DNA of 61,654 nucleotides from an uncultured Chloroflexia bacterium. GTDB lineage: Bacteria > Chloroflexota > Anaerolineae > B4-G1 > SLSP01. The translations under genes were made by a program, and so were the position numbers. The stretch covers positions 1 through 61,654 of the forward strand of contig CAVVUS010000041.1 of assembly GCA_963751345.1 (NCBI GenBank), in the 5' to 3' direction. Below are positions 34,106 through 53,139 of the stretch, one piece after another. The stretch's first letter is position 1. Every line of letters starts with the position of its first letter. Under the pieces are notes generated by a model. The model ran no database searches and had not been told where the DNA came from. It saw only the letters and a list, made by a program, of their open reading frames with translations.

Positions 34106-35291
34106 ATGTCTTCAGCCAATCACAAACGCACCAGAACACTCTTGTCTGCGGCGAAAATCGCACTGCGTATCGCTGCGGGAGGATTCGTACTGATTCTTGC
34201 CGTCTGGATTGGCTCAGAACTCTCGCGGACACTCGACGCGCCCGATGTGCAGGCCGTCGCCACAGCCTTGCCAAGCTTTCCCGCCGCGGGGCCACCTATT
34301 GCCCCTTCGCCTTCACCTTCCGCTCGGGCGACGGCGTCCGCGACCTCGCCGTCTGCAACCATCGGTGCCCCGCCCCAGCCGACGCTAGCCGCGCCGACGC
34401 CAGTCGCGACACCGATCCGTGCCGCGCCTCGTCGCGGGCACGGATGGTGTCAACGTACGACTGGGACCGGCGACAAGCTTCGACAAGATCGGCTTCCTGG
34501 AGCCGGGCCAGGAAGCGGCGGTGACGGGATGGGGCAACGGGTGGTGGCAGATTGAATACCGTGGCCAGGTCGCGTGGGTCTCCGGCGCATACGCTGACGC
34601 AACCGGGGCAGACCAGATCGTCGAGCCTACGCCGCCTACAGAGAACAGTGACCCAGGAGAACCGAGCCCGCACTTGGTCGCAGGCGACAACGGCGTCAAT
34701 GTTCGCCTCGGGCCGAGAGTTGCCTTCGACAAGGTGGGACATCTGGAACCTTCTGCCGAGGCCCCGGTTATCGCGAGGAGTCAGGGCTGGTGGCAAATCG
34801 CCTATCTGGGCGGGACCGGATGGGTCTCGGGCCAGTTCGTCACGGCATTTGGCGCCGAAACCGTGGCAGAGGTCACGCCGCCTTCCACCCCGCAGCCCAC
34901 ACCGACCTTGCCACCTGCCCCTGTGTGGGCCATCGACGAAGCCCGCTGGATCGATGTCGACCTATCGGAGCAGCGTCTCACCGCATATCGCGGTATTATC
35001 CCTGTCCAGAGCTACCTCGTCTCAACGGGGCTTCCGCAGACGCCGACCCCACTCGGACAATACCGCATCTGGATCAAGCTACGCTACGATGACATGGCCG
35101 GGGAAGACTACTATATCAAGGACGTTCCCTGGGTGATGTACTTTTACGAGGGCTATGGGCTCCACGGTGTGACCTGGCACGCGAATTTCGGCCACCCGAT
35201 GAGCCACGGCTGTGTCAACCAGCCCAACGATATGGCGGAATGGCTCTTCAACTTCGCCGACGTGGGCACGCTCGTGAACGTCCACGAGTGA
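34106..35291 (+). CDS. L,D-transpeptidase with two SH3 domains (frameshift ~34435)
   Basis: N-terminal TM, Pro/Ala linker, two VNVRLGP SH3 repeats, DVDLSEQ, HG...SHGCVN. Confidence 0.88.
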
Positions 35292-35308: not shown

Positions 35309-35440
35309 TTACCGATCCGGCCCACCCTCTAGTGCTTCAAGGGTCTGCATCAGGCGCCGAAACCGCAGATACATGGTGATGCCCAGTCCGAGGGGCACCG
35401 CACAGAAGATCGCGTAAGCGACGATGAGATAGATCGGCAT
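35309..35440 (-). CDS. ccmD: CcmD-like small membrane protein
   Basis: ATG after AAGGAGG; YLIVAYAIF TM followed by a charged tail; downstream of and in frame with ccmC. Confidence 0.6.
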   Translation of the reverse strand: MPIYLIVAYAIFCAVPLGLGITMYLRFRRLMQTLEALEGGPDR

Positions 35441-36154
35441 CGCGTCCTCCTTAAAGCTCTCTCGCGCAAGCTGCAGCGCAGTCAGACGATCCCGCGCCAG
35501 TGCAAGCCGGATCCGCTGACGCAGCAAGGTAGCATAGATAAGAGTGAAGGCGCCCAACGAGACGAAGAGCGTCTGCACCATCTTAGGCGTCATAGCCATT
35601 CCCTCCGAGGAGATGACCTGGGGATGGATGGTTCGCCACCACCGAATCGCGAACCACGAGAGCGGTACCGTGACAAAGGCAACGATGCCGTACACGGCGG
35701 CGAATCGCGCCTCCTGACCAGGGCTGTTCACCGATCCACGCAGCATCACATAGGCGACGTAGACCAGCCACTGCACGGCTGAGATCGTCAACCGCGGCTC
35801 CCAGGTCCAGTAGACGCCCCAGACCGGACGCGCCCACAGCATCCCTGTGAGCAATGTCATCGAAATGAAAGCCAGCCCCACCTCTGCCGAGGAGAACGCG
35901 ACGATGTCCCAACGCCGATCTCCGCGGATGAGATAGACGACGCTTGCCAAGAAAGTCACAAAGAACCCGAAGAATCCCACCCAGGCCGAAGACACGTGAA
36001 AATAGAAGATACGCTGCACATCGCCCATCGTCGCCTCGCGAGGCGCGTAGCCGAAGACCATCCACATCGCCCCAAGGAACGCAAAGACGCTCAGGATGGC
36101 GAGGCCGCCACCAACCCACCGCTTGCCCTCCAGGGCCATCGTACCGCTTGCCAT
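35441..36154 (-). CDS. ccmC: Heme exporter CcmC (no stop seen before ccmD)
   Basis: QRIFYFHV, WARPVWGVYWTWEPRLT, WRTIHP. Confidence 0.9.
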
Positions 36155-36159
36155 CGATT

Positions 36160-36813
36160 CTAAGCCTCCAGAATGGTCTCGAACGTCAAAAGCGAGGCCG
36201 CCGCGATCAGCAGATCGTAGACGACCAACAGGCGGGTCCACCCGGCCAGATCCGCCCAGTGCAGTCCGTCCAGCAGGCCACCGGTCGCCTGTACTGCCGC
36301 GATCAGCAGCGGGACGACCAAGGGCAGCAGCAAGACGGGCAACATCACCTCACGCGCGCGGGTGTTCACCGCGATGCCGGCCAACAGCGTGCCCACGATT
36401 GCATAGCCGACGGTGCCCAGGAGCAGTATAGCGAGAACACCGGTGCTGAACAGGTTCACGTTGAAGAGAATCGTGGCCAGCGGCACCAGCACAACCTCCA
36501 GTGCCAGCATCATGGCGAGGTTACCCAGAGCCTTGCCCAGCAGGATGACGGTTCGATCGGCAGGTGTCAGCAGCAGACCGTCCATCCCACCCGTCTCGTG
36601 TTCGCGGGCCATCGACCGGCTCAGGCCGAGCGTCCCGGCAAACGCGATCGTCGTCCACAAAACTCCAGGCGCAGCCGCACGCGCGACCGGCCCCCGCAGA
36701 TCGAGGGCAAAGCTAAAGATCAGCATCGCCAAGAAGGCAAAGACGAACATCGCGCTGAGGATCTCGCGGGTGTGCAGCTCGGCGGCGAGGTCCTTCGCGA
36801 TGACGGCTGCCAC
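36160..36813 (-). CDS. ccmB: Heme exporter CcmB
   Basis: KDLAAE, APGVLW, LLGK, REVMLPVLLLP. Confidence 0.9.
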   Translation of the reverse strand: MAAVIAKDLAAELHTREILSAMFVFAFLAMLIFSFALDLRGPVARAAAPGVLWTTIAFAGTLGLSRSMAREHETGGMDGLLLTPADRTVILLGKALGNLAMMLALEVVLVPLATILFNVNLFSTGVLAILLLGTVGYAIVGTLLAGIAVNTRAREVMLPVLLLPLVVPLLIAAVQATGGLLDGLHWADLAGWTRLLVVYDLLIAAASLLTFETILEA

Positions 36814-37618
36814 CTGCCGCAGGTAGCCGGCATTCCCCTTCGGAGGGCCTGTCCTGAGCGAAGTCGGAGGAAGGGGGACGCCGGTCTGCTGGCGCCGGGA
36901 GGGGGAGGCGCGTGACGTCGGCCCGCGGTCGCTGCACCAACTCCCGGTACAGCGCCGGGAACCCAGCAGGATCCGTCACGGCATCATCATATACGACGCG
37001 TCCACGATTGAGGATCACGGTGCGGCGCCCGCCCACGGCCATATTCCCAAGGTCGTGTGACGTAAGCAGAAGCGTCCTGCCCTCCTCGGCCAGGTCCGCC
37101 AGGAGCGCCGTCAGCGCATCCGCAGCCACCGGGTCAAGCCCCGTATAGGGTTCGTCAAGCAGGAGCAGCCGAGGCCGATGGAGGACGCTGCGGGCCACGG
37201 CGAGACGCTGCTGCATCCCGCGCGAGAAGGTGCGGACGAGGTCGTTGCGCCGGTCTGCCAGATCGACACGCACCAAGAGCTCGTCGATGCGGGACTCCGC
37301 ATCTGCCAGACCATAGACTCTAGCATAGAAGCGGAGGTTCTGCTCCGCCGTGAGATCGTCATAGAGAAGGGTGCGATGAGAAAGGTAACCGATCTGACGC
37401 CGCACGTCTGCGCCCGCCTTCGCGGGATCAAGGCCCGCGACGCGGACTGCGCCCTTGGTGAGCCCGGACAGCGTGGCCAGGATCCGCAACAGCGTGGTCT
37501 TGCCCGCACCATTGGGACCCGCAAGGACCACGAACTCACCATCCCCCACGTACAGGTTGACGCTCGACAGCGCGGTACGCGGGCCGAAGGACTTGCCTAG
37601 ATCGGTGATTTCAAGCAT
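36713..37618 (-). CDS. ccmA: Heme ABC exporter ATPase CcmA
   Basis: GPNGAGKT, FSRGMQQR, LLLDEP; located in ccm operon. Confidence 0.9.
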   Translation of the reverse strand: MLEITDLGKSFGPRTALSSVNLYVGDGEFVVLAGPNGAGKTTLLRILATLSGLTKGAVRVAGLDPAKAGADVRRQIGYLSHRTLLYDDLTAEQNLRFYARVYGLADAESRIDELLVRVDLADRRNDLVRTFSRGMQQRLAVARSVLHRPRLLLLDEPYTGLDPVAADALTALLADLAEEGRTLLLTSHDLGNMAVGGRRTVILNRGRVVYDDAVTDPAGFPALYRELVQRPRADVTRLPLPAPADRRPPSSDFAQDRPSEGECRLPAAGGSRHREGPRRRAAHPRDPQRDVRLCLLGDADL

Positions 37619-37662
37619 GTTGGATCAACCGAACTGGATACCGCCACGCACGAGCAGCGCCG

Positions 37663-38898
37663 CTACTGCCCCGCCGCCTTACGGACCTCGCGTGACAGCC
37701 TGCGAGTGATGACGGCACGCTCCCGTCGGTAAGCCTCGGCATCGAGGTCGCCACGGTCGTAGCGGTCGTCCAATGCGACCACCTCAGCCACCATTGCCTC
37801 GGCGGACTCAGGCACGGGTGGCAGCGGCGACGCTGCGCTCCAAACCCTGTAGGCCGCGATTCCACCCACGGCGAGGGCGAGGGCCCCAAGACCGGCCTCC
37901 AGCCCTGCGTTGCGTTCGCGGGGCGTCGACGTGGCCAAGGATCCATCGCTGACCGTCTGTGCGACCGTCGCCTCCTGGGGTACCATCCGCAGCGTCAAGG
38001 GGACGCCGGCAGCCAGCGGCCCGGCGGTATAGGAGGCAGCCGTCCCCATCTGTGTGTCCATCAGCCCGTTGAATACGATGCCGTCGCCCTCGACCCCCAC
38101 ATCACTCCCGCTCACAATGATGACCACTGACTGTATCGGGACACCTAGCGACCGCGTGAGGACGAGCCCATCCTGATAGGGCAGATCATAGCTAAAGTCC
38201 GCCTCAACCGTTGCCGTACCCGGTGGAATCGGCAGCGTGTCGGAAAAATGGGTCACGTCGCCAACATACCGCGCACCCAGGCCGGGACCATTGAAACTCA
38301 TCGACCCGGCGCCGGCAGGCGCGGTGAACGCGACCGTGGTCAGCACGCCGGTGCTCCCAACCGGCGTGCCCATATAGGTCCGTTCGCCGGTGTTGCCGAT
38401 GAGATAGTATTCTGCGACCTCGATCCGATCTCCTTGTGGCACAAAAAACAGATGTGCTTGGTCCACCTGGACCGCAGATACGTCGCCGCCGGGCTCGTAG
38501 ATATTGATGAGGGTCGGTGCATCCGACGCGCCTTCGAAGGTGCCGGGCTCAGAATAGTAGGCGACATCCTCGTGGACCACGCGGGCCAGGTAGTCCTTAC
38601 CCACCTCGGCCCCCAGCCCTTCGAAACGAAAGGTGCCGTCAGCTGCCAGTGTGGTCGTGTAAACTGAGGTCCACGTGTCACCGCTGAAAAACTGCAGGGT
38701 CACCGCCGCCCCGACGGGCAGCGTCCCATCAGGGGTGCCGTTGACGACCTCGCCGAGGAGCGTCCCCCCATCCGGTGCCTGCGCCGCGACACCACCGACC
38801 CAGACGAGGCTCATCACGAACAACAGGCAGGTGAGCCATACCCACCTGTTCCACCGAGGCTTGCGGTCGCCCAACGTCTCCGAACTCATCCGAATCAT
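37663..38898 (-). CDS. Exported membrane-anchored ccm-associated protein
   Basis: Signal peptide, beta-rich body, C-terminal TM and SHOCT-like LDDRYDRGDL tail. Confidence 0.6.
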   Translation of the reverse strand: MIRMSSETLGDRKPRWNRWVWLTCLLFVMSLVWVGGVAAQAPDGGTLLGEVVNGTPDGTLPVGAAVTLQFFSGDTWTSVYTTTLAADGTFRFEGLGAEVGKDYLARVVHEDVAYYSEPGTFEGASDAPTLINIYEPGGDVSAVQVDQAHLFFVPQGDRIEVAEYYLIGNTGERTYMGTPVGSTGVLTTVAFTAPAGAGSMSFNGPGLGARYVGDVTHFSDTLPIPPGTATVEADFSYDLPYQDGLVLTRSLGVPIQSVVIIVSGSDVGVEGDGIVFNGLMDTQMGTAASYTAGPLAAGVPLTLRMVPQEATVAQTVSDGSLATSTPRERNAGLEAGLGALALAVGGIAAYRVWSAASPLPPVPESAEAMVAEVVALDDRYDRGDLDAEAYRRERAVITRRLSREVRKAAGQ

Positions 38899-39239
38899 GC
38901 CGCGCCCCCTTTGACGAGAGGTTTGCCGCATCTTGGACAGAACATATGATCCGGCTCCACACGTCGGCCACAATGAGGGCAGAACTGCGTAGGTTCGTCA
39001 ACATCCGGCAATCCGGCATCGCCCGGCTCAGGCGTGGTCAGATCGACGAGAGGGGTCGCCGCTACCTCGAAGCCTGCGTCCGAGGCGGACGAACGCACCG
39101 CACGGGCCTGGCTGACCCACGCCTCGATAGTCGCTTCGACATTGATCGCAACGCGCCGAAAAGGCCGCGCGATGTAGGCCGCGACCACGGAGAGAATGGC
39201 CAGACTCACCAGAACAGTACCCAAACTCATATTGTCCAC
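38895..39239 (-). CDS. Membrane-anchored zinc-ribbon protein
   Basis: N-terminal TM ending in RPF; CPHCG...CPRCG. Confidence 0.75.
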   Translation of the reverse strand: MDNMSLGTVLVSLAILSVVAAYIARPFRRVAINVEATIEAWVSQARAVRSSASDAGFEVAATPLVDLTTPEPGDAGLPDVDEPTQFCPHCGRRVEPDHMFCPRCGKPLVKGGAA

Positions 39240-39244
39240 CTACC

Positions 39245-41726
39245 CTATTCGCTTTGGGAGCCGAGCAAGTCGGCCAGCTCCGCAGACAGCGTCTCGGCCG
39301 TCACCGGACCGATGTGCAGATACGCCAGGTATCCTTCGGAGTCCACGACAAAGGTCTCCGGTATACCTGTGATGCCATAGGCCTCGGCGATCTGGTCCCC
39401 TGTGTCCATCCCGATGGGGTACGTCGTACCATACTGCGCCAGCGCTTGCTCCACGGCCGCCAGGTCATCTTGATACGCGATCCCCACGTATGCGACGCCC
39501 TGATCGCCGAAGCGTCTCCCAGACCTGCTCCAGGTCGGGCATCTCCTCCTGGCACGATGGGCACCAGGACGCCCAGAAGTTGATCACCGTCACCTGCCCG
39601 CGAAGCTGCTCGAGCGAGACGGTTGTACCATCAAGCATAGTGAGCCGGAAATCCGGCACCGGCTGCCCAACCAGCGGCCGGCCCCCACCTTGGTTGGGAT
39701 CCACGCCATGGGGGACGCCCCACATGGCCCACCCCGCACCCGTGAGCAACACCACGCCCGCTGCCAACACGAGTCCGTTCATCGTCCGACTCCGCAGTCG
39801 CGGCCAGAATGCCAACGCGCCACCTGCCATGAAAATCAGACCGCCCAACCAGAGGAAATTCACCAGTGGATTGACGACGATCTTGAACGTCGCATCGTTG
39901 CCGCTATCGGACCATCCCGAAAGGATGAGGTAAAGATCCTCTTTGACGCCGGGCGCCAATGCGGGGACGGTGACCGACTGATCGGAGTTGACGTAGTCGT
40001 TGAGTCTCGGCGCGAGACCGGCGACATAGCTGCCGTCTCGATAGACAGAAACGGATGCCCAAACGCTGCTGTAGTCACCGACGAACTCCTGCTGTAGATT
40101 GTCGTAGACGAGCGTGTAGTCACCAACCTCGGCAGGCTGAGCCAACGACAATGTCCGCTCTGCCTCGAGCGGGTACATACGGCTCCCGATGACGCCTACC
40201 GCCATAAGGATGACGCCCACGTGGACGAGATACCCACCGTATTTCCGGCGCTGCAGGCGAAAGAGCCGCCCCAGTGCATTGAGGGGCGCTTCGCCGGTAC
40301 GCTTGCTGCGGTCTGCTGCCCCCTGGACCAGCTCTGCCAGCGTCGTCACGCCCGCGAGGCCAACGAAGGCGAATCCTACCAGGGAAGCCGGAAGTGTGAA
40401 CCCGGCAAGCGCTGCACCCGCGGGTATGCCCACGGCCCCCAGCCCAACGAGCCAGGCGCGAGAACGTAGGCGGACCAGGGTCGTCGCAGCTCGCCCGAGC
40501 AGTGGACACAGCCCCAACAACAGCACCAACGCCCCAAACTGCGGCCCCGTGACACGGTCAAACCATGCAGGGCCGGCCTCGAACCGCTGGGAGGCCAGGG
40601 CTTCGGTCAGAGTCGGCAGCAAACTCCCCACCAGGACCGAGAGGGTCAGCATCGAGAACAGCACCAGCGTCAGGAAGAAGAGGCCATCGCGTGACAGCAG
40701 CCGGTCGAAAGTCTGCTGTCCACGCAGGAGCTTCCGGCGACTGTAGAGTAAGCCCAGCGATCCCACCAGAGTCACCCCGATGGCAGACAGGAAGTAGCTG
40801 CCCAGGTTAGATGCAGCATATGCGTGTACCGACTGGATCATGCCGCTGCGCGTGGCGAAAGTCCCGAAGAGCACCAGCGTAAACGAGGCGATGGCCAGTG
40901 CGAAGTTCCAGACCCGAAAGCCGCGTCTCTCGTCCTGCATCACGGCCCCGTGCAGCAGCGCTGTCGTCGTCAACCACGGCAACAGTCCGGCGTTTTCCAC
41001 GGGGTCCCACCCCCAGTAGCCGCCCCACCCCAGCACGTCATACGCCCAGCGCATCCCGAGCAGTAGACCCAGCCCAAGCCCCAGCCAGGCTAGCAGGATC
41101 CAGCTCCGCAGGCCGCGCGTCCACCCCTCAATCCTCCGCGTGACAAGCGCCGCCAACGCAAAGGCGAAGGGCACCGCCAGTCCAACGTAACCGACGTAAA
41201 GTGCCGGGGGATGGAAGATCATACCGGGGTGGCGCAGCAACGGGTTGAGGCCCTGCCCATCTACAGGGACAGGCGACAGCGAGACAAAGGGATTCGAGAG
41301 CAAGAGCGTCACACCGACGAAGAAGATCGTGATGACGTTGAGGAAAACGGTCGCCCACGGCACCAACGGCCGGGCCTGGTCCGCGGGGCGGGCGGTGGCC
41401 AACGCAGCAAAGAGCGCCTGAAGCGCACACCACAACAGAAGCGAACCTTCTTGCCCCGCCCACACCGCCGAAACCTTGAGGTAGGCGGGGATGACGGTCG
41501 AGGAGTGCTCAGCAACATAGCGCACGGAGAAGTCATTGGTCAGAAAGGCGGCCAGCAGCAACAACAGCGCCCCCCCGAGCAGCCAGGCCAGGGCCAGCGT
41601 CCCATGGCGCGCGCTCTCCATCCACCGCGAATCGCGCCGGTAGATTCCCCAGAGCGCAGCGAACGCCGCGTACACGGCGACGATAACAGAGAGTATCAGT
41701 AGGTTCTGTCCGATCTCAGCGAGCAT
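39245..41726 (-). CDS. ccmF: Heme lyase CcmF fused to TlpA/CcmG thioredoxin domain (frameshift ~39490)
   Basis: WAGQEGS, HPP, WGGYWGWDPVEN, SVHAY; in-frame NFWASWCPSC, then GIPETFVVD. Confidence 0.92.
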
Positions 41727-42209
41727 CTAGTCTCCCGTCTGCCCCGGAATCGCCTCTTCGTAGCGGGTTGGGCACTTGAGCAGCACCTCATCCGCCCGAA
41801 AGCGTCCGTCGTCCCCCAATTGTCCGCGCACGATCGCCTGAGCCTCATTCTGCAGCAGGTCCGGCTTCACGCTATCGTAGACGATCTCGATCGTCCCCAG
41901 ACTCGCATCCAACGTGGCCTTATGGAGCACCTGTGCCAGCCCCCCTTGCGCTTCTACTACCTTCGGGTCGCCGGGAACTTGGACAATCGTAAATGTGACC
42001 TGTGGTCCCATCGGATCATACACAATGGTATCACCAAGTACGGCGCCGGAAATCGTGATATTACGCCCGAGCGCATCGTCGCCCATCGCACGGAGCTCAT
42101 CAACTGTGAGGAAATACTGAGCCGTCGTCCCCGTACTTGAGACAATCAGGTAGCCGACGGCAGCGACGACCAACAGCCCCGCAACGATAAAGGTGGTCCG
42201 GTTCCGCAT
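41727..42209 (-). CDS. ccmE: Heme chaperone CcmE, CxxxY type
   Basis: N-terminal TM; KPDL; LLKCPTRY. Confidence 0.88.
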   Translation of the reverse strand: MRNRTTFIVAGLLVVAAVGYLIVSSTGTTAQYFLTVDELRAMGDDALGRNITISGAVLGDTIVYDPMGPQVTFTIVQVPGDPKVVEAQGGLAQVLHKATLDASLGTIEIVYDSVKPDLLQNEAQAIVRGQLGDDGRFRADEVLLKCPTRYEEAIPGQTGD

Positions 42210-42250
42210 CGCATTCTCCCTAGCCTAACAAAGGTATCTCATAAGGTATC

Positions 42251-43724
42251 TTATGATGAGAGGAGCGCATAGTGCTCCAGTGTCTCACGAAGGGTCGGGC
42301 TAATCTTCCCGAGCACCTGATCGCGAAGCTCTTCGGCGGCCTCTTTCCCCACGAGCTCGCGAAGGACGCTATGCTGCGTCTGCAAGAAACGCCGGTAGAT
42401 CGCCGCCAGCTCGTTAGCCGTAAGATGGCTTTCGGTCCGGTCGTCGATGCGGCTATCGCGAATACTGACGGGCAGATCTCGGCAGCGCCGGTTCACCTCA
42501 TCCTCGCAAGCGTTCGCCTCCTCGGGCGAGGCCCGCAGCGGGATGGCGTTCCGGCACATCAGCTCGGCAAACTCGCGCAGGACCCGCCGTAACTGACTTT
42601 TGTCAGGATCCGCAGGCTGGACAAGGTCGACGAGATAGAGCCCGTAGAGGATCCGGCTGATCTCGAACTCCGTTAACCCGGCAAGACGAGCGACTGTGGT
42701 GATGTCCTTTGTCCCATCGATGATCGAAAGAATCCGCTGCTCTACATCCAGGAGCTGCAACTCCTCGTCGCGAGCATCCCACGTCCCGAGGTTCGAAAAG
42801 AGCATCGGACGCGGGGACAATCCCCTGGATGATCTGCCATGAGTCCAGTTGGCGTGCCCCTTCAAGAATGAGGGTGTCGGCGTCGCGATCCAACACCACG
42901 CATCCCTCGCGCGGACAGCCGCGCTGATCGAAGACGTACCCGCCCCGCTGCCAGCGAAAGAGCTGAAGAACGTCGTCAAGCACGCGGTCCCTATCCATCA
43001 CAGGTCTGTCGGAGGCCTGCGACCCCACACAGTGCAGTCTACCTTGATCGAAGGTCATCGTCCGGCTGAGCGAGCCGTTCGTCACGACAAGGGTCCCACT
43101 GTGCTTGCCCGACGCAACCAACTTGATCAGATCAGGCAGATGGAACTCCTGCAAGTCCCCCTGCAGGGTCATCAGGTCGCCCGTGAAAGGTGCGCAGTCC
43201 TCCGCAGCATTGAGTTGGTCCGCAATGTCGGTCAGCCAGTCCATGTCCAGCCGGGCTGAAGCGATCGAATGCTCCAGAATAGCTTGCTGAAGGGAGTGAG
43301 CTTTGGCGCTCGCACAGTGGCCTTCCAGATCGGAAACCCACTCGCGTAGGAAGTCGATCCTCCGTCGCAGGAGCGGCTCAGCCTGATCGCGTGGTAACCG
43401 ATTCAGCAGCGAGATGCCAAGGTCATATTCGGTCCGGATCGGCTCGACAGACGCCAGGAGATCGCGCATATCCTCCAGGAACTGCTCACGCCCGAGCTTG
43501 GTCACATGGTACACCGTCTTCTCTCCGCCGGTCCCTCGGGCGTGCGCTTCTGCAATCAGCCCTAGACGGTGAAGTTTGTTAAGGGAGTAGTAGATCGCGG
43601 CAGTGCTGATCTCAAACCACAACTCGACCCCCTCGCCCTTGAGTGCCTGGCCAATCTCATAACCGTGCATGGGACGCTCCACCAGGAAACCAAGCGCCAG
43701 AAGATCGTTCCTTGTCAGTTTCAC
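42251..43724 (-). CDS. PadR-family regulator fused to DUF4388-like domain (frameshift ~42780)
   Basis: PMHGYEI, IYYSLNKL, YHVTKLGRE; LQGDLQEFHLPDLI...SGTL; GTG after AGGAGG. Confidence 0.8.
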
Positions 43725-43808
43725 CGTAGTTCCTCCTGGCAGCCTAAGAGGGTCACGCGATCCGACCGCCACTTCGGGCATTATACCATGCGTCGGGAGA
43801 ACGGCGCG

Positions 43809-43881
43809 TAGTCAGTACTGAATATTCTCAATCTTCGTATTTGACTGAAATTAGTCACTATGATATACTCAAGTCTGAATC
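43809..43881 (+). promoter_or_regulatory. Promoter of cytochrome operon with flanking palindromic operator candidates
   Basis: TTGACT (43841)-17 nt-TATACT (43864) with TG extension; TAGTCAGTACTGAATA (43809) and TACTCAAGTCTGAATC (43866). Confidence 0.7.
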
Positions 43882-44000
43882 ATTGTGCCGAGGAGGTGCC
43901 ATCCAAGAGACGTACCCAGACTGCCTCTAGCCTTCGCTGATGCCTTGCGGAATCTGCTCTTATCTCGCCTGTCCTCACCCTAATGCCCTGGAGGTCCGTT

Positions 44001-46185
44001 ATGCACATCAGACGTTCCTGCCTCCTCTCTATTGGAGGTCTTCTCGTAGGCTTGTTGCTCGCGGCCTGTGGCTCATCTGCCACACCGCCGCCGGCCGCTC
44101 CAACGCCGTCTGCAGTTCCTCCGACGACGCAGCCGTGTCCCGAGCTTCCGGCGTGTCCCGAGGTTCCGACCTCTCAGCCGTCAGTAGACGTCCCATACGA
44201 GGCAGATTGGATCACTTCGGGTCACGCAGATGCGAGTGCCGAACCTTTCGTTCATTGGAACGAGGATGATCCCGCCGTAGTACCCGAGGGGTGTGCCAGG
44301 TGCCACAGCTCCTACGGCTATCAGGACTTCCTGGGCGCTGACGGCAGCACGGCAGGCGTTGTGGATCAGCCCGCCGCGATCGGCTCGGTCATCAACTGTG
44401 TCGCCTGTCACAACACCGCCACACTGACCCTGACGAGCGTGACCTTCCCGTCGGGGCAGCAGCTGACCGGGCTGGGCGATGAGGCTCGCTGTATGCAGTG
44501 CCATCAGGGCCGGGCTTCGAAGGCGACCGTCGATGCATCCATCGAGAGCGCCGGATTGACGGATATGGATACCGTCAGCGATGACCTCGGCTTCACCAAC
44601 ATTCACTATTTTGCTGCGGCTGCGACCCGCTACGGTACCTGGGCGATGGGAGGCTACGAGTATGATGGCCAACCCTACGACGTCAAATTCGCCCACGTCG
44701 AGGGTATGGACACGTGCATCGACTGCCACGATCCGCACACGCTGGAGGTACAGGTCGAGCGTTGCGCGGACTGCCACGAGGGCGTGACCGCCGTCGAGGA
44801 CCTCAAGGACGTGCGATGGATGGGTTCCAAGGTCGACTATGACGGTGACGGCAATCTCCAAGAGGGGATCTACTATGAGATTGAAGGGCTGCGAAGCATG
44901 CTCTACGAGGCGATGCGGACCTACAGCCAGGAGATCACCGGGACGCCCATCGCCTATAGCGCCGATACCTACCCCTACTTCCTGATCGATCTGAACGGCA
45001 ACGGCGTCGTTGACGCCGACGAGGCCAGTCGAGACAACGGTTTCACCGCATGGACAGGGCGGCTGGCAAAGGCTGCCTACAATCTGCACACATCGGTGAA
45101 GGATCCCGGCGCTTTTGCGCACGGCGGCAAATACGTGATCGAGTTGCTGTACGACAGCATCCGCGATCTTAACGTAGCGCTTTCCAGTCCTGTGGATCTG
45201 ACCTCCGCGCACCGCGTCGACGCCGGACACTTCGATAGCTCTGCAGAGCCCTTCCGCCACTGGGATGCCGACGGTGAAGTCCAGGCCAGATGCGCCAAGT
45301 GCCACAGCGCGACCGGGCTCCCGACCTATCTGAAGGAGGGCGTCAATGTGTCCGCAGAGATCAGCAGCGGGTTCGCCTGCACGACATGCCACGAGGTGAC
45401 CCCTGAGGGTCTGGTGCCCCGCACAGTTTCTACTGTCCGGTTCCCCAGCGGCGTGTCACTCGACAGTGGGAGCTCAAGCGGCAACCTGTGCATGACTTGC
45501 CACCAAGGACGGGAATCCGCCGCTTCGGTCGAACGTGCCGTGACGGGCTTCGCCGACGACGAGGTGATGCCGGATCAGGGCTTCATCAACGTCCACTACC
45601 TCGCGGCGGGTGCAACGCTGCTCGGCGGCAACGCCCGTGGCATGTACCAATACCCGGACCAGGAGTATGCTGGCCAACTGGAACACGTCCAGGGCGCACA
45701 GACCTGCGTGGACTGCCACGATCCCCACGGCCTGGCTGCGGACACAGGCCTCTGCCGGACGTGTCACAAGACCGAGGATGTCAGTACCATCCGGATGTCG
45801 AGTGTGGATTACGACGGTGACGGCAACACGCAAGAGGGACTTGCGCAGGAAGTCTCCACGATGGAAGATCTCGTCTACGCCGGAATGTTGGACTATGCCG
45901 CAACCGTGCTCGAGGCGCCCATCGTCTACAGCGACGCGTACCCATATTTCTTCAACGATCTGAACGGCAACGGCGGCGCTCGATGATGATGAAGGCTCCA
46001 GCAGCAATGCCTACGCCGGTTGGACGCCTCGTCTGCTGAAGGCCGCCTACAACTACCACTACGTCCAGAAGGAGCCGGGGGCGTTCGCCCACAATGGTCG
46101 GTACGTCCTCCAAGTTCTGTACGATACGGTCGTCGACCTTGGCAACCAGGTCAGCATCGACACGACCGTAATGACGCGACCGTAA
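44001..46185 (+). CDS. Decaheme cytochrome c lipoprotein, duplicated pentaheme unit (frameshift ~45975)
   Basis: GGAGG RBS, lipobox LLAAC, ten CxxCH; C-terminus continues in +1 frame to TAA 46185. Confidence 0.9.
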
Positions 46186-46212
46186 CTCATAGACCCATCG
46201 GCAGGAGTGCAT

Positions 46213-49200
46213 ATGACACCACTACCACGGACGCGTTGGCGATACATCGCCGTAGGACTGGTCCTTCTCTGCGTGGCCATCTGGCTATCCCTGGGCAACC
46301 CGGCGGTTGCCCAGGAGCCGGGCCAGGACCATGGTGGCTTCTCGGCACTGGCCGGCCCGTTCGAGACGCCTCAGGAGGTCACCGCAGCCTGCCTCACCTG
46401 CCATTACCTCTCCGGTGGGGAAGTTATGGGCACATCCCACTGGACTATGACAGTGACGGACACCGTCACCGGTCAACAACTAGGCGAGCGCCACATCATC
46501 GACAACACCTGGATCGGTCTCCCATCAAACGAGCCACGGTGTACGTCATGCCACGCAGGCTATGGCTACACGGACAGCTCATTCTTCGAGACGGCAACTG
46601 AGACCGACGTCGACTGCCTCGTCTGCCACGCAAGCACAGACACGTACGAGAAGTTCCCAGCGGGGGCCGGCTATCCGGTCCTCGGAGAGGCTCAGGAGTT
46701 CCCTCCGGGATCCGGCACGATCTGGGAGCCCGTAGACCTGGCAGCCGCTGCCCAGAGCGTGGGGCCACCGGGGCGTGATAACTGTGGTTCGTGCCACTTC
46801 TATGGGGGCGGCGGGGATGGTGTAAAACATGGCGACCTGGACAGCACCCTGGTCGCGCCAAGCCGTGAGCTGGACGTGCACATGGGCACGGATGGCCTCG
46901 ACTTTACCTGTGCGACGTGCCACGGCGGACAGGACCATGAGATAGCGGGCAGCTTGGTCAGTGGCCAAACTCCCGTCGAGTGTGAAGGCTGCCACTCGGG
47001 CGACAATGCCCCTCATCAGGACAGCGAAATGGGCGCGGCGCTGGCCCAGCACACAGATGCCGTGGCGTGCCAGACCTGCCACATCCCTACCTTTGCCCGC
47101 GAACAGGCGACGACGATGTCCTGGGATTGGTCGAAAGCTGGGTTGAAGGATGCAGACGGCCAGCCGGTCGTCTACACGGATGCTGCGGGCAACGTGGTCT
47201 ATGATACCCAGAGGGGCACACTCACGACTGAGATGAGTGTGGTTCCCACCTATAGATGGTGGAATGGCGATATCGCCTATCTCACCCTGGCGGATACGAT
47301 CGAACCTACTCAGACGGTGACCCTAGCTGCCGTACAGGGCGGTCCCGGGGATGGCAAGATCTCGCCCTTCAAACGCTTTACAGGCGTACAACCTTACGAT
47401 GCGGGCGAGAACACCCTCGTCGTGCCCAATCTCTACCCCAATGATGCCGGCGACACTGACGCCTACTGGGCTGCCTGGGACTGGCAGCGAGCGGTCGCCT
47501 CCGGTATGGCTACCGCCGGCGCTGAGTTCAGTGGCGAGATCGGCTGGGTAGACACCGAGATGTACTGGTCCCAGAACCACATGGTCGCACCCAGCGAAGA
47601 AGCGCTGACGTGCGTCGACTGCCATACGAGCGGGGGAAGGCTCGACTTTCAGGCTCTGGGCTACGAGCCCAAGCGCGCGGCCTTCCTGAGTACGCTGGCA
47701 GAGCCGGGTGGTCCTCCGCCGCACCAGAATCTGACACGCTACACGGGGCCCGAGACCTGCTTGACCTGCCATCCCGACGCGGGACGACAGGTGGCGGAAT
47801 CTGTACACTATGCGTGGGACGGCGTCGCCCGACCGACGGCGGCCAACGACGACCTCCTCAGCAGGATGGGATCTGAATACTGTGGCCTTCCGGAGTCGGC
47901 CGGCAGCATCAAATGGCTCAGTCTGCTGCAACCCCAGAATCCGGGCCAGTCCCCGGCGCCCGATGGCTGCGCCCAGTGCCACGTGGGGTTCGGCGCTAAG
48001 CCGAATCCGCCGGACGCCCTCACCGAGGCGGACGAGACCAACGTAGACTGTCTGATCTGCCACGGGCCCGGCTACACACGGACGGTCGCAGATGTCGATG
48101 GCACGCCGCGCCTCGTCGCGGCGCCCGAGGCGGATATCCTGGAGGTGGTGCGAAACGTCCAGAACCCAACGAACGAGATGTGCCAACGCTGCCACGCCGG
48201 CCCTGGCGGGGGGCTGAGTAACGAGCATAGTGGTTCGTTGGCATCGCCTACCACCGACGTACACCTGGCCAACGGGCTGCAGTGTATAGACTGTCACAAG
48301 GTCGAGGACCATCATTTCGTGGGCACCTCTGATCTGCAGGGCGGGGACGACCAGGGGCCGGCGCCAAGCTGCACCGACTGTCACGATGGCAAGCACCCCA
48401 CGGGGTTCACCGCCATCGATATGCACCTGGACCGAGTGGCCTGTCAGACCTGCCACGTTCCTGCTATCGCGAGAGACCCGGAAATTCCTACACTCGTCGC
48501 CACAGACTGCACACAGACTGCGCTTCAGGATAACGGGCTCTACCAATCCGTGATCACGCTGGACACGGAGATCACGCCTTTGTACCGTTGGTCGAACGGC
48601 CAAACGACCGGTTACCCGCCGGGCCCGGTCGGGAGTATCGATGATCCCAGCGCCAAGCTCACGCCCTGGAAAGCCATTACGGCAATGGAGCCAGTCGACG
48701 CGGCGTCCGGGGACTATCTGCCCATCCAGAGCGACATCCTTGCGGTCACCGGGGACCTCGACCAGGCCATTAGCCAGGGAGCTGAAGCCGCAGGGACCGA
48801 CTACTCCGGCTCCTGGGAGCCAACACACCGATCAGTTGCTCTTCCCGGTGAACCACCAGGTGGCACCGGCAGCCGAGGCGCTCAAGTGTGCTGATTGCCA
48901 CACGCGCGATCAGGGCAGACTGGACTTCGTAGGCCTGGGATACTCGGAGGTCCGCGCCACAGACCTGGTGCGCAGTGCGCCCACCGGCACGACCTCGGAG
49001 CCGGCGAATATAGTCCAGGGAAGCCAGTACAGCAGTGATGCACGGGCGTATGTCGGCGGTCTGGAGGAAGCTCTCGGGCAACACAGACATGACCTCAACG
49101 TAGCGATGGGCATCATCGGAGGAGTAGCTGCCGGCGTCGTCGTGGCCCTGCTCCTTGTCATCCTGGTGCTGCGCAGCCGCGGAGTGACGGTGACGAGCGG

Positions 49201-50542
49201 CGAGGGGGTGGCTGCGACAGCACCGCGGTGGCGTGACCGCTATGGTGGTCCTGATCGTCGGCTCGGCGCTCGTCGGCTTTGTGAGCCTGCACTATCTGCT
49301 GGAGTTCACCGCTTCGACGGAGTTCTGCGGAGAGCTATGTCACGCGACGCGGGCCGAGTACGTCACATATCACACATCGCTCCACGCAAACGTGTCCTGT
49401 GCAGAATGTCACGTGGGTCCGGGTCTGGACCAGGAGCTCAAGGCCAAGCTGAACGGGCTTCGTGAGCTCTATCTCTACACCACGAATACGTATGAGCGGC
49501 CCATTCCGTCGCCCGTGGAGACCCTTCGACCCGCCCGCGAGGTCTGCGAGGCTTGCCACTGGCCCGAGGTTTTCTACACCGACCGCGCAGTGGAGATCCC
49601 ACACTTCGCCAACGACGAGGCCAACTCACGCAGCAACACCTACATGCTCGTCAAGATCGGCGGCGGGACCGAGCGAGAGGGACAGGGTCAGGGCATCCAC
49701 TGGCACATCCAGAACAAGGTCGAGTACATCGCCACCGATCCGCAGCGCCAGAACATCCCCTGGGTCCGAGCAGAGATCGACGGCCAGACGGTGACCTACG
49801 TCGACGTGACCAGCCCCACTCAGCGAGGAGGAGCTCTCGCAGTACGAGGTCCGCGAGATGGACTGCATCGACTGTCACAACCGCGCCTCTCACATCTTCC
49901 GATCGACCGACGAGGTGCTGGATGAGGCAATGGCGAACGGTGTCCTGCCGACAGATCTTCCCTACCTCCGGCGTGAGGCCTACAATGCACTGGAGACCCG
50001 GGATGACACCGCTGCTGCGACGGCGGCGATCGAGGCTATCCCCGCCTTCTATGAAGCCAACTACCCGGAGATCTATCAGGCGAAGCAGGATGTCTTGACG
50101 GATGTCGTGCAGGATCTGAAGGATATGTATGCCATCTCGCACTTCCCCGAGGAGAAGGTCTTCTCGGACACGTATCCGGACAACCTGGCGCACCTTGAAG
50201 ATCCGGGGTGCTTCCGCTGCCACAATGGCAAGCACTACGCGCAGGACAGCAGCGCCCAGATCGCAGGAGACCAGTCCATCCGCCTGCAGTGCAACATCTG
50301 TCACACCATCCCGCAGACGGTGCCGGCCGGCCAACCGGTGCCGGAGATCCCATTCCAGGCCGCGCCCACAGCCGACCAGCCACCTCTCAAGCACGTGGAT
50401 CGCCGACCATCGCTACACGTTCGATAACACCTGTACCGGTTGCCACGAGGAGGAGACCTTCTGCGCGAACCCCAACTGCCACGGTCGCAGTTGGCCCTAC
50501 GTCAATCTATCTGTGTCCAATCCACCTTTTCCCTTGCCCTAG
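46213..50542 (+). CDS. Giant multiheme cytochrome: OTR-like x2 + 2 TM + NapC/NirT-like, 24 heme motifs (four +1 frameshifts)
   Basis: SNEPRCTSCHAGYG, GGGGDGVKHGDLD; 22 CxxCH plus CGELCH and CANPNCH; overlapping ORFs 46207, 48641, 49233, 49858, 50129 each offset by +1. Confidence 0.75.
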
Positions 50543-50593
50543 CGGTCGCGGCGGTCAATCGACGCCGCAACATCGAGGTTAGGCGAGCTCAGC

Positions 50594-50637
50594 AAGTGCC
50601 CGGCACCCCACCACGCATCCCAAGGTGCCGGGCACTT
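50594..50637. repeat. REP-like inverted repeat / possible terminator
   Basis: AAGTGCCCGGCACC ... GGTGCCGGGCACTT, perfect 14-bp arms. Confidence 0.7.
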
Positions 50638-50726
50638 CTGTCGTGGCTTTGCCTTTCCGCGACCAATGCGCTACTCTAGTAGTCCGATACCGTTAGGACG
50701 TCGGCAGTTTCATATAGGAGTGACGA

Positions 50727-52653
50727 ATGAAACAAGCCATCACCCCGGAGCAATCGCTTCGTCTCAGCCGGATGCCTGTCGAATACGAATTGTGCATGAG
50801 CCTCGGCTGGCTGAGCAACCTCAGGTGGCTCGCGGGCGCCGGTGTCATCGTTGCTACGTGGGTAGCCAGTGCCCTCGTAGGCGTGGAGATAGACACCGTT
50901 GCGCTCTACATCACCGGAGTGGCCATCCTGGCGTACAACCTCGTTTTCCAACGCTGGTTGACCCAGATCCAGTGCGATCTGACCGGCATCAGCACCCACA
51001 CCCGCACGTTGGCGCGCGTACAGATCGCGATGGACTGGGTAGCCATGACGTCGCTCATCCACTTCTCGGGGGGCATCGAGAGCCCCGTGATCCTCTTCTT
51101 CTTCTTCCACATCACCCTGGCTGCTATCCTGCTCTCCGCCCAAGACACATTTCTGTTCGCAGGGCTGGCCTGCCTCCTTCTAACCGGCACGGCGTTGGCG
51201 GAATTCGCCGGGGTATTGCCGCACGAACACGTCACAAAGATGCTGCCTGCGGATCTCTATGCCAATCCACTCTACATCGCTGGCATCCTCGATCTTCTTT
51301 TCCAGTGCCGTCTTCGTCTCAGCCTATCTGGCAACGCGCACGACGCGGAGACTTCGGGCGCGCGAAAGCGAGATGGTCCAGTTGGGACAGGATCTTCAAC
51401 TCGCCTACGGCAGATTGGAGGCGCTCTACCAGAGCGCTCAGGCCGTCAGCTCGACGCTGGAGCTCCAGGAGGTGCTCGACCGCCTGACTCAGAGCACTAC
51501 CGAGGTAATGGCGGTCAAGGGATGCACCATCCGCTTGCTGCACGACACGAGCACCCAGCTTTGCCTGGCCAGCACCTATGGCCTCAGGGAGGAGTACCTG
51601 CAGAAAGGGTGCCTCCTCGTCGAACAGAATCCCCTGGTGCGCCAGGTGCTTGCAGGAGAGGTCGTGTCGGTGCCCGATATCACCGCGGACTCGCGCCTCC
51701 AGTATCCCGCGGAGGCCGCCGCGGAGGGCATCCGCTCAACGCTGACCGCCCCGTTGGTGGGCAAGTCGGGTCCCCTGGGCATTATCCGGATCTATTGCGA
51801 CCAGGTGCACAGGTTCACCGAAGAGGACGCGCAGTTTCTGCGCACGGTGGCGAGTCACGGCAGCATCGCAATCGAGAATGCTATGGCGTATGAAGCGATC
51901 GAACACTTGGAGGAAGCCAAACGGAAGTTCGTGCTGCTGGTGACGCACGAAGTCCGCTCGCCACTAGGCGTCGTACGCAGCTTGCTCAACACACTTTCCG
52001 GCGGATATGCCGGTAAGCTCACGGACCTGCAGGCTGACATGGTCGACCGTGCCGTCCGTCGCACCGAGTTTCTCCAGACCCTGATCGACGACCTGCTGGA
52101 TCTCGCTGCTGGGAAGACTGGCCTGCGGATGACGAACGCGACGGAACCGGTGGAGCTTCAGGCATTGGTCAGGGGCATTGCCGAGCGATACCACGTGCCC
52201 GCGGAGGAGAAGCAAATCGACCTCCAACTGCACATCGCCTCCGACGACCCTCTGATCGTCGTCGCCAACCAGGAGGAACTCGACCGGGCAGTCACCAACC
52301 TGGTATCGAATGCGGTGAAGTACACGCCCGCCGGCGGATCGGTCACCCTATCATTGTCACGGAGCGGAGGAGCCGCTACGCTGACGGTCACCGACACAGG
52401 AATCGGCATTCCCGAGGATGCTTTGCCCCATCTCTTCGAGGAATTCTATCGGGCACCCAACGCGAAGGCTCAGGTGAAACAGGGCACGGGCCTGGGCCTG
52501 GTGATTGCCAAGGATATTGTGAGCCGCTATGGTGGCACAATTGGGGTGAGCAGCACATTGAATCAGGGGACCACGTTCTCCGTGGTTCTGCCGGTAAGCG
52601 TTCAGAAATCCCAGCCGGCGCGAACTGGCATTCCGTCGATGTCTGTGCGATAA
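50727..52653 (+). CDS. Membrane GAF sensor histidine kinase (frameshift ~51290)
   Basis: Multi-TM N-terminus (SGGIESP), GAF, THEVRSPL, NAVKY, DTGIG, GTGLGL. Confidence 0.9.
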
Positions 52654-52706
52654 TGGCGGTGGAATGCGAAGCAAGCACGAGATCATGACAGACCGGAGGA
52701 ACACCT

Positions 52707-53087
52707 ATGGAGCCTAAGAAGATTCTTATTGCCGATGACGATCCCGACCTCGTCCTCGCTACACGCCTCGTCTTGGAAAGCGCGGGGTACGTCGTTGACG
52801 AGGCTTCTAGCGGGGAAGCGGCGCTGGAGAAGATGCGTGCCGATACGCCTGACCTCGTCCTGATGGACGTGATGATGGCCAACCCCCTCGATGGCTACTA
52901 CACTACGCAGCAGATAGCCGACGATCCGGCACTCAGCGAAGTACCCATCGTGATGGTCTCCTCCATCGCGACGTCGCAATACGCGGCGAGCTTCCCCACC
53001 AATCAGCTACTGTCGATTCGCGAGTTCATCTCGAAGCCCGTCGAACCTGAGCAGCTGCTGGCGAAGATCAAGCGCTACGTGAGGTAA
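52707..53087 (+). CDS. Single-domain response regulator
   Basis: ADDDPD, LMDVMM, SKP; no output domain. Confidence 0.9.
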   Translation: MEPKKILIADDDPDLVLATRLVLESAGYVVDEASSGEAALEKMRADTPDLVLMDVMMANPLDGYYTTQQIADDPALSEVPIVMVSSIATSQYAASFPTNQLLSIREFISKPVEPEQLLAKIKRYVR

Positions 53088-53139
53088 GCCCTGCGGGCTT
53101 GCGCGGCACTGCGGGGGCCCGCCCCGCAGCATAGCCAGC

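Follow-up and report, generated by a model that had tools for sequence, protein, structure and literature searches.

A candidate porin-free surface electron conduit formed by a 24-heme fusion protein and a decaheme lipoprotein in an Anaerolineae bacterium

A 61,654-nucleotide stretch of DNA from an uncultured sediment bacterium of the Anaerolineae (positions 1 to 61,654 of contig CAVVUS010000041.1 in assembly GCA_963751345.1; the whole stretch is the window referred to below) carries, between positions 35,309 and 53,087, genes for two multiheme c-type cytochromes next to a divergent operon for cytochrome c maturation (ccm). One product is a decaheme lipoprotein; in the other, with 24 hemes, domains of the octaheme tetrathionate reductase (OTR) fold are joined to a NapC/ImcH-type domain. 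We put slightly above an even chance the reading that the pair forms a porin-free, quinol-fed surface electron conduit for extracellular reduction in a monoderm cell.

In such a conduit, complex I would reduce a (salvaged) menaquinone pool, and the NapC/ImcH-type domain, lying on the outer face behind a transmembrane (TM) hairpin, would oxidize the quinol and pass electrons along its eight hemes. The two N-terminal OTR-fold domains, their catalytic lysine lost, would relay or store electrons on 16 hemes outside the cell. As the outward terminal carrier, the lipid-anchored decaheme protein would hand electrons to an acceptor in the surroundings; Fe(III)/Mn(IV) species or humic quinones are the most likely ones. 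The ccm operon, apparently the only one in the cell, would load scavenged heme. Domain order, the fusion, the topology signals, the residue losses, purifying selection, synteny, and the lack of Omp85, of heme-synthesis genes, and of quinone-ring genes come directly from the sequence comparisons. We infer the quinol oxidation, the direction of flow, the contact between the decaheme and 24-heme proteins, the acceptor, and the regulation by a PadR protein and a kinase encoded in the locus.

Anaerolineae, numerous in sediments and digesters, are as a rule regarded as fermenters. Their large multiheme cytochromes have been counted, with a role in extracellular electron transfer (EET) offered as a guess (bioRxiv 10.1101/2021.08.23.457424), and in the papers found these proteins are not resolved into a pathway. 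The locus would supply a donor-relay-terminal chain of minimal size, open to cloning, for a cell that has no outer membrane.

The 24-heme fusion protein

The features that carry the proposal are as follows.

44001..46185, plus strand: decaheme lipoprotein, lipobox LAAC, two tandem NrfA/OcwA-fold pentaheme modules (extra base at 45980)
46213..50542, plus strand: 24-heme fusion protein (extra bases at 48825, 49199, 49813, 50358)
46327..47664, plus strand: OTR domain 1 (TIGR04315, 523 bits against a cut-off of 375; alignment to 1SP3)
47710..48945, plus strand: OTR-like domain 2, eight motifs, Lys-less subfamily (TIGR04315, under cut-off)
49100..50542, plus strand: two TM helices and NapC/NirT-type octaheme domain (PF03264; NrfH 2J7A, E 1.9e-6)

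Six-frame motif counting placed 34 heme motifs in the two proteins, all on the plus strand and in the number given by the initial annotation: ten CxxCH in the decaheme gene (44292–45767) and 22 CxxCH, one CX3CH and one CX4CH in the 24-heme gene (46390–50482). The span 44001–50542 holds 32 CxxCH motifs, compared with a mean of 0.2 and a maximum of 2 in 200 codon shuffles.

Related genomes are numbered G (G000 is the present one) and database proteins P. Relative to the sister genome G002, the locus contains ten single extra bases (35458, 36847, 39513, 42777, 45980, 48825, 49199, 49813, 50358, and 51292). These are read as errors of assembly because the relatives are intact, contigs from other runs disagree, and selection is purifying. 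The 24-heme gene is a single open frame of 1437–1472 codons in G002, G006, and G015, and its database homologs P0001–P0005 (P0001 is the G002 protein and P0004 the G015 protein) are single chains of 1426–1441 amino acids. Contigs from independent runs lack the extra base at 48825/6, 49810, and 51290, and the ratio of nonsynonymous to synonymous substitution rates (dN/dS) is 0.05–0.19 throughout the locus (12 segments, ccmF excluded). True pseudogenization was ruled out on these grounds, all ten changes being +1 relative to G002 and three being contradicted by the independent contigs. A split of the OTR and NapC parts into two genes was ruled out by the single-chain relatives.

The 24-heme chain consists of a signal peptide, an OTR domain, a Lys-less OTR-like domain, a TM hairpin, and an eight-heme NapC/ImcH-type domain. 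The two-helix hairpin, at approximately residues 965–1025, is found in all five full-length proteins; with the signal peptide, it would place both heme blocks outside the membrane, on its outer face. The C-terminal domain matches PF03264 at 44 bits (cut-off 24.1) and is preceded by a TM helix, which is the arrangement of the NapC/NirT/NrfH quinol dehydrogenases. Its first motif is CX3CH and its last CX4CH, kept in 30 and 31 of 31 homologs, respectively. The lysine aligned to NrfH Lys82 is invariant (32/32 homologs), the position of NrfH Asp89 is Glu here and His in many homologs, and that of Met49 is Thr. We take Lys82 and Asp89 to belong to the quinol site of NrfH and Met49 to heme 1. The structure model of this domain was poor (pLDDT 58), and a fold search with it was uninformative.

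ImcH of Geobacter sulfurreducens, which is described as having up to three TM helices, NapC homology, seven hemes, and a first motif CXXXCH, is required for Fe(III) reduction (PMC4251993). Compared by this described architecture, the present domain shares the NapC homology and the first motif but has eight motifs including the terminal CX4CH, is preceded by 16 further hemes on the N-terminal side, and belongs to a cell predicted to have no outer membrane. The initial annotation had also remarked on the lack of a porin, an NrfD/PsrC subunit, and a molybdoenzyme, and indeed no match to MtrB-, NrfD-, or molybdoenzyme families was found among the open reading frames (ORFs) of the locus that were scanned (17 and 18 in two scans). 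An NrfD/PsrC subunit may be missing because the quinol-oxidizing module sits fused within the 24-heme protein.

OTR domain 1 aligns to 1SP3 over 440 residues (E 1.8e-108) and retains all eight heme motifs and the distal histidines. In Shewanella OTR, Lys56 ligates the catalytic heme II (PMC3769277, PMC11024163). Here the Lys56 position is Glu (codon 46486–46488) and the Cys64 position is Trp (46510–46512), and G002 likewise has Glu and Trp. Of 120 classical OTR domains, among the 120 proteins listed, 119 have Lys56 and 116 have Cys64; in the classical domains compared, loss of Lys56 is confined to P0001 and the present species. The protein thus resembles OTR of Shewanella oneidensis (SO4144, 1SP3, TIGR04315) in its eight motifs, its distal histidines, and a domain 1 score above the cut-off. 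It differs in the Lys56-to-Glu and Cys64-to-Trp changes, in a second Lys-less domain, and in its fusion to a membrane quinol-dehydrogenase domain, whereas OTR is a free periplasmic protein.

Domain 2 has no Lys at heme II and does not retain the equivalents of Asp150 and Lys153 in the alignment. The subfamily to which it belongs is Lys-less, with a variable heme II loop and variable distal positions (31-row alignment), and in P0001 it matches the MmcA model TIGR04314 at E 8.6e-17, with 61 bits against a cut-off of 250. The G021 protein keeps 24 hemes with two Lys-less OTR-like domains, and a classical OTR domain was not found in it. In a tree of 29 domains, the states at positions 56 and 64 are nested inside the fused clade in the order KC > KY > KL > EW, with support of 99/93, 99/92, and 100/100. 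Between G000 and G002, dN/dS is 0.11 for domain 1 and 0.14 for domain 2; the EW-state domain 1 thus lacks the ligand lysine while under purifying selection. Part of the 24-heme protein appears to be a former enzyme turning into a wire.

MmcA of Methanosarcina acetivorans is an OTR relative without the lysine and is described as an electron conduit (PMC11024163). It lacks the heme II motif (seven hemes) and is tied to Rnf, whereas here the heme II motif is kept and a NapC-type partner is fused; no rnf genes were found among the locus ORFs scanned. The fused clade would provide a natural series for testing the step from catalytic multiheme enzyme to electron wire, known only from the end point MmcA, and "tetrathionate reductase" annotations in such genomes may be wrong.

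A bolder proposal, which we put forward tentatively and would expect to fail more often than hold, is that an OTR enzyme has been caught becoming a wire in a graded series (Lys and Cys, Lys only, neither, a Lys-less copy instead), with heme II possibly Glu-ligated or re-ligated. The two-protein, 34-heme chain would then support a scavenged-cofactor respiration of extracellular acceptors in a heme- and quinone-auxotrophic lineage, and the decaheme protein would represent a large NrfA-fold family, so far unstudied, that has an active-site set of its own and can be fed by exchangeable membrane donors (ImcH-type, NOX/ferric-reductase-type, or perhaps Na+-NQR).

The fusion has a scattered distribution. 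Of 41 genomes searched, 5 matched the OTR part, all of them in the same genus; at family level the OTR family occurs in 6 of 71 genomes, and within the genus 5 of 22 genomes have the NapC-type domain. The close homologs that carry names (P0004, P0006, and P0007) are from Anaerolineae. Other tandem OTR proteins (P0008, P0009, P0014, and P0039–P0078) have 1000–1136 amino acids and 15–16 motifs, with two classical domains or one classical and one divergent domain; some are named from Verrucomicrobia.

The decaheme lipoprotein and its possible acceptors

A lipobox is present in the decaheme protein of all genomes inspected, and the second half of the protein repeats the first in sequence (44% identity in congeners). 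The structure model was made from the 95%-identical G002 protein (pLDDT 91.7). In fold comparison, the first repeat scored Z 12.2 with OcwA (root-mean-square deviation [rmsd] 3.6, 215 residues aligned), 11.7 with ONR, 11.2 with NrfA (rmsd 4.7, 249 aligned), and 11.1 with OmhA; unrelated structures scored below 5. Model residues 64–391 align to OcwA 282–525, which is the C-terminal module of OcwA only. A sequence search of the PDB gave no match, a profile search gave merely weak motif-level matches, and Foldseek gave no match at E 0.001, the best being OcwA at E 0.01.

HHalign placed decaheme heme 1 on the catalytic CxxCK heme of NrfA (probability 94.6, E 6.5e-8). The motif of heme 1 is CxxCH, and NrfA Tyr216 aligns to Arg171. 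The Ca-binding KxQH of NrfA had no match in the profile alignment, whose aligned part does not reach Arg106, and PF02335 did not match at E 0.01. The invariant histidine is another one, His202. Each module has six conserved non-motif histidines, and an NrfA-type chain needs four; because two per module are surplus, heme 1 would be either bis-His, as in a wire, or facing a new catalytic set. As modeled, the decaheme protein is a pair of NrfA/OcwA-fold pentaheme modules without the Arg-Tyr-His triad of NrfA.

Every module has known relatives (bioRxiv 10.1101/2022.02.24.481543, PMC11492766). OcwA of Thermincola potens and OmhA of Carboxydothermus ferrireducens are described as surface iron reductases of monoderms (bioRxiv 10.1101/2022.02.24.481543, PMC7829351). 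They have both an N-terminal (c554-like) and a C-terminal module and 9–11 hemes, whereas the present lipoprotein repeats only the C-terminal pentaheme module in tandem and is 15%–20% identical to them. The porin-free iron reduction of Carboxydothermus offers a parallel parts list of OmhA, the OTR-related SmhA, and quinol oxidases (PMC7829351); here, in contrast, the OTR and quinol-oxidase parts form one protein, encoded in a cluster with ccm. NrfA/NrfH share the pentaheme fold, the heme spacing, and an adjoining NrfH-like donor, but the present protein differs in the CxxCH motif of heme 1, in an Arg where NrfA has its catalytic Tyr, in lacking KxQH, and in having two modules per chain. Porin-cytochrome complexes (MtrCAB, Pcc) include an outer-membrane beta-barrel, of which no counterpart was found here. 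In the open-access article texts searched, no description was found of the OTR-NapC fusion, the graded OTR-ligand loss, the NrfA-fold decaheme family, or heme auxotrophy in Anaerolineae; literature beyond these texts may bear on novelty.

A profile of the decaheme protein finds 601 clusters at E 1e-30. In the best 80 loci, mostly from Chloroflexota and many ending at contig ends, a NapC-type domain lies within 10 kb in 32, ccmF in 14, and OTR domains in 1. In all 11 loci of single-module paralogs from other congeners and family members, the adjacent divergent gene encodes a membrane oxidoreductase of the ferric-reductase/NOX type (recognized by Pfam in 10 and by tblastn in all 11); tblastn did not find that oxidoreductase gene in the present genome. 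In G003 (genome:contig:positions G003:C7:55526-59482), for example, a single-module pentaheme protein with an N-terminal TM anchor is paired with a Ferric_reduct-FAD-NAD gene, and another pair is at G015:C292:11587-13253. Such pairs, frequent in the genus, may form a two-gene electron route from NAD(P)H to the cell surface. On two of three alphaproteobacterial plasmids inspected (NZ_CP029209.1 and NZ_CP067130.1), a pentaheme module is divergent from an nqr (Na+-NQR) operon. With NapC-type, NOX-type, and nqr neighbors, the module seems to pair with more than one kind of outward electron donor. Single-module homologs carry the annotation "polyheme membrane-associated cytochrome c," as do the lipoproteins OmcB and OmcC of Geobacter; OmcB, however, belongs to a porin-cytochrome complex. 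The decaheme protein may also resemble the C-terminal half of OmcB.

Several observations weigh against a surface conduit. The fold scores for surface iron reductases and nitrite reductases lie within about 1 Z unit of each other and do not separate the two. Residues near heme 1 are conserved as those of a catalytic pocket would be (His85 in 96/99, Arg171 in 90/99, and Asn200-His202-Tyr203 in 99/99). Most fused relatives retain Lys56 (P0002–P0006 and G006), and OTR domain 1 here retains the residues aligned to Asp150 and Lys153, which we take to be active-site residues of OTR (P0004 has Asp at the 150 position and Arg at the 153 position); together these suggest that the ancestral fusion was probably an enzyme. 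RNA contigs from one salt-marsh run (X6) cover the cytochrome genes and not 50204–53100, and as contigs they cannot show transcription. Finally, the chain would work only with imported heme and quinone precursors.

The retained Lys56 of the relatives also speaks for an alternative that we regard as rather unlikely: a terminal reductase linked to quinol, with a soluble substrate such as nitrite, hydroxylamine, tetrathionate, or some other S/N/Se oxyanion. The NapC domain would then feed a site at decaheme heme 1, in an unrecognized His-ligated NrfA-fold enzyme, or at a remodeled OTR heme II. The alignment of heme 1 with the NrfA catalytic heme and the surplus histidines speak for the first site, and a His-ligated NrfA is described as active (PMC13562315), but the Arg at the Tyr216 position and the unmatched KxQH argue against it. 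As for the second site, tetrathionate induced otr in an Acidobacteriota metagenome-assembled genome (PMC8528874), but both OTR domains are Lys-less here and G021 is without a classical OTR domain. A search of 121 genomes of the order yielded 2 weak matches and essentially no canonical NrfA, which leaves room for a substitute; on the other hand, a separate HAO-like octaheme protein beside Hcp is available for nitrogen chemistry, and the paralogs are paired with a ferric-reductase-type donor. The initial annotation had left EET and S/N-oxyanion respiration side by side. Porin-free EET is the best reading of the two, and the oxyanion option is weakened in the present species because both OTR-fold domains lack the catalytic-heme lysine.

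Maturation, host respiration, and cofactor supply

The locus was initially described as a self-contained module in an otherwise sugar-fermenting organism, and neither description holds. The ccm genes are the only set in the genome (two PF01578 matches, both in the window), and ccmF is single-copy in 14 of 16 genus genomes. The operon must, as judged from gene content, also serve the alternative complex III (ACIII), a cbb3-type oxidase, an HAO-like octaheme protein, and a 17-motif cytochrome; a module that shares its one ccm set with these further clients is not self-contained. With genes for the whole of complex I (NuoA-N), for ACIII, and for the cbb3-type oxidase, the host is not purely fermentative. 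The ACIII genes lead directly into the nuoA-N operon, which is complete and has nuoF in duplicate (G000:C43:108500-132000), and the oxidase has multi-heme CcoO/CcoP-like subunits with 3, 1, and 5 motifs (G000:C11:156600-163000). The HAO-like gene is divergent from the prismane (Hcp) gene, near a Crp regulator (G000:C36:47070-50500). Two cytochromes are unassigned, with 17 motifs (G000:C10:130170-131770) and about 6 motifs (C25:18750-20750).

Cytochrome maturation would follow system I, of which CcmA, B, C, E, F, and a thioredoxin are present, several with TIGR scores under the cut-off. CcmH (PF03918) was not found in 22/22 genus genomes, and two accessory genes of the operon (37663–39230) may substitute for CcmH/CcmI. 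Omp85/BamA was not found in the 22 genus genomes in searches that included positive controls, so no porin is expected; PF11854 (MtrB-type) was not found in G000, although the control for that search was weak.

In a search for quinone genes elsewhere in the genome, an MqnP-like prenyltransferase and MenG were the only ones found, and MqnA/D, MqnC, MenB, and MenD, for synthesis of the quinone ring, were not found. Genes for two NMT1/THI5-like binding proteins and an ABC transporter follow closely downstream of the MqnP-like gene (G000:C44:12500-17900), and this cluster is a candidate quinone-precursor salvage operon. HemB was not found in 16/16 genus genomes, and ferrochelatase and HemA were not found in the present genome, which is 93% complete. 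HemC was not found in 70 of 71 family genomes and was present in one, although most have ccmF. Heme would thus have to be imported if the cytochromes are made, and the pattern points to a family-wide heme auxotrophy alongside c-type cytochromes. The locus would then imply a respiration dependent on the heme and quinone of neighbors.

The ACIII and cbb3-type oxidase would permit inward flow, with electrons from Fe(II), reduced humics, or a partner cell entering the quinone pool for ACIII/cbb3 respiration, and the reversibility of multiheme chains, described for MmcA (PMC11024163), would allow it. This direction seems highly improbable, since characterized NapC/NrfH/ImcH proteins oxidize quinol toward outward acceptors (PMC4251993), the host is rich in organic donors, and the paralogs are fed by an NAD(P)H-type TM donor.

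A further possibility, to which we assign little weight, is that of an electron sink or capacitor that serves no particular acceptor, in which 34 surface hemes would buffer reducing power from sugar catabolism in a fluctuating sediment and discharge to O2 through the cbb3 oxidase, to NO, or to oxidized shuttles. The locus is flanked by genes of sugar catabolism, its presence is patchy, its heme number stays constant while catalytic residues erode, and a redox-sensor-like kinase is attached. The ordered donor-relay-terminal layout, conserved over many genera, fits a pathway better, and 34 scavenged hemes would be a costly buffer.

Gene order and regulation

The remaining features of the locus are as follows.

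35309..35440, minus strand: ccmD-like 43-amino-acid membrane peptide, assigned by position and size; own Shine-Dalgarno sequence and ATG
35450..36154, minus strand: ccmC, heme chaperone-loading permease (TIGR01191, E 1.5e-34, under cut-off; PF01578)
36160..36813, minus strand: ccmB (TIGR01190, E 3e-12)
36810..37618, minus strand: ccmA, ABC ATPase (TIGR01189, over cut-off; extra base at 36847 near the gene end)
37663..38898, minus strand: accessory secreted/membrane protein of the ccm operon, 410 amino acids, no family match
38895..39230, minus strand: accessory N-anchored Zn-ribbon protein (PF13240)
39245..41726, minus strand: ccmF fused to a TlpA/ResA thioredoxin (extra base at 39513)
41727..42209, minus strand: ccmE (PF03100)
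42251..43724, minus strand: PadR-DUF4388 regulator (PF03551, PF14332; extra base at 42777)
43841..43869, plus strand: sigma70-type promoter TTGACT-17-TATACT, between padR and the decaheme gene
50727..52653, plus strand: sensor kinase with PilS/RegB-like TM domain, GAF, HisKA, and HATPase (extra base at 51292)
52707..53087, plus strand: stand-alone receiver domain (PF00072)

The gene order matches that first reported: on the minus strand, PadR/DUF4388, ccmE, ccmF-TlpA, Zn-ribbon, 410-amino-acid protein, ccmA, ccmB, ccmC, and the ccmD-like ORF diverge from the cytochromes, which are followed 3′ on the plus strand by the kinase (6TM-GAF-HisKA-HATPase) and the lone receiver. The regulator is of PadR type. 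Cytochrome and ccm genes are conserved together, with the order full or nearly full in G002, G006, G015 (no padR), and G021 and up to the contig end in G009. The ccmD-like ORF joins the ccmC frame in the assembly solely via the extra base at 35458, and tblastn finds the peptide at 73% in G002 and 59% in G015. The ccmF-thioredoxin fusion is an open frame in G006 (825 codons) and G015 (836), and the 410-amino-acid protein is kept beside ccm in 10 of 80 related loci.

A palindrome, TGACT-N6-AGTCA (43842–43857; one site, 0.1 in shuffles), overlaps the promoter and is a candidate PadR operator. A counterpart of the promoter-palindrome site is present in G002, G006, and G009; none was found in G015, which is without padR, and none by pattern in G021. 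In the kinase TM domain, a GGIESP loop is conserved, and matches to the RegB family are weak; a loop of this type is the quinone-sensing motif of RegB.

An SH3-SH3-YkuD L,D-transpeptidase gene (window 34419–35291) converges on ccmD and is adjacent in G002 too, not in G015. An aldehyde:ferredoxin oxidoreductase is encoded at 569–2494 of the window, amid sugar-catabolic genes.

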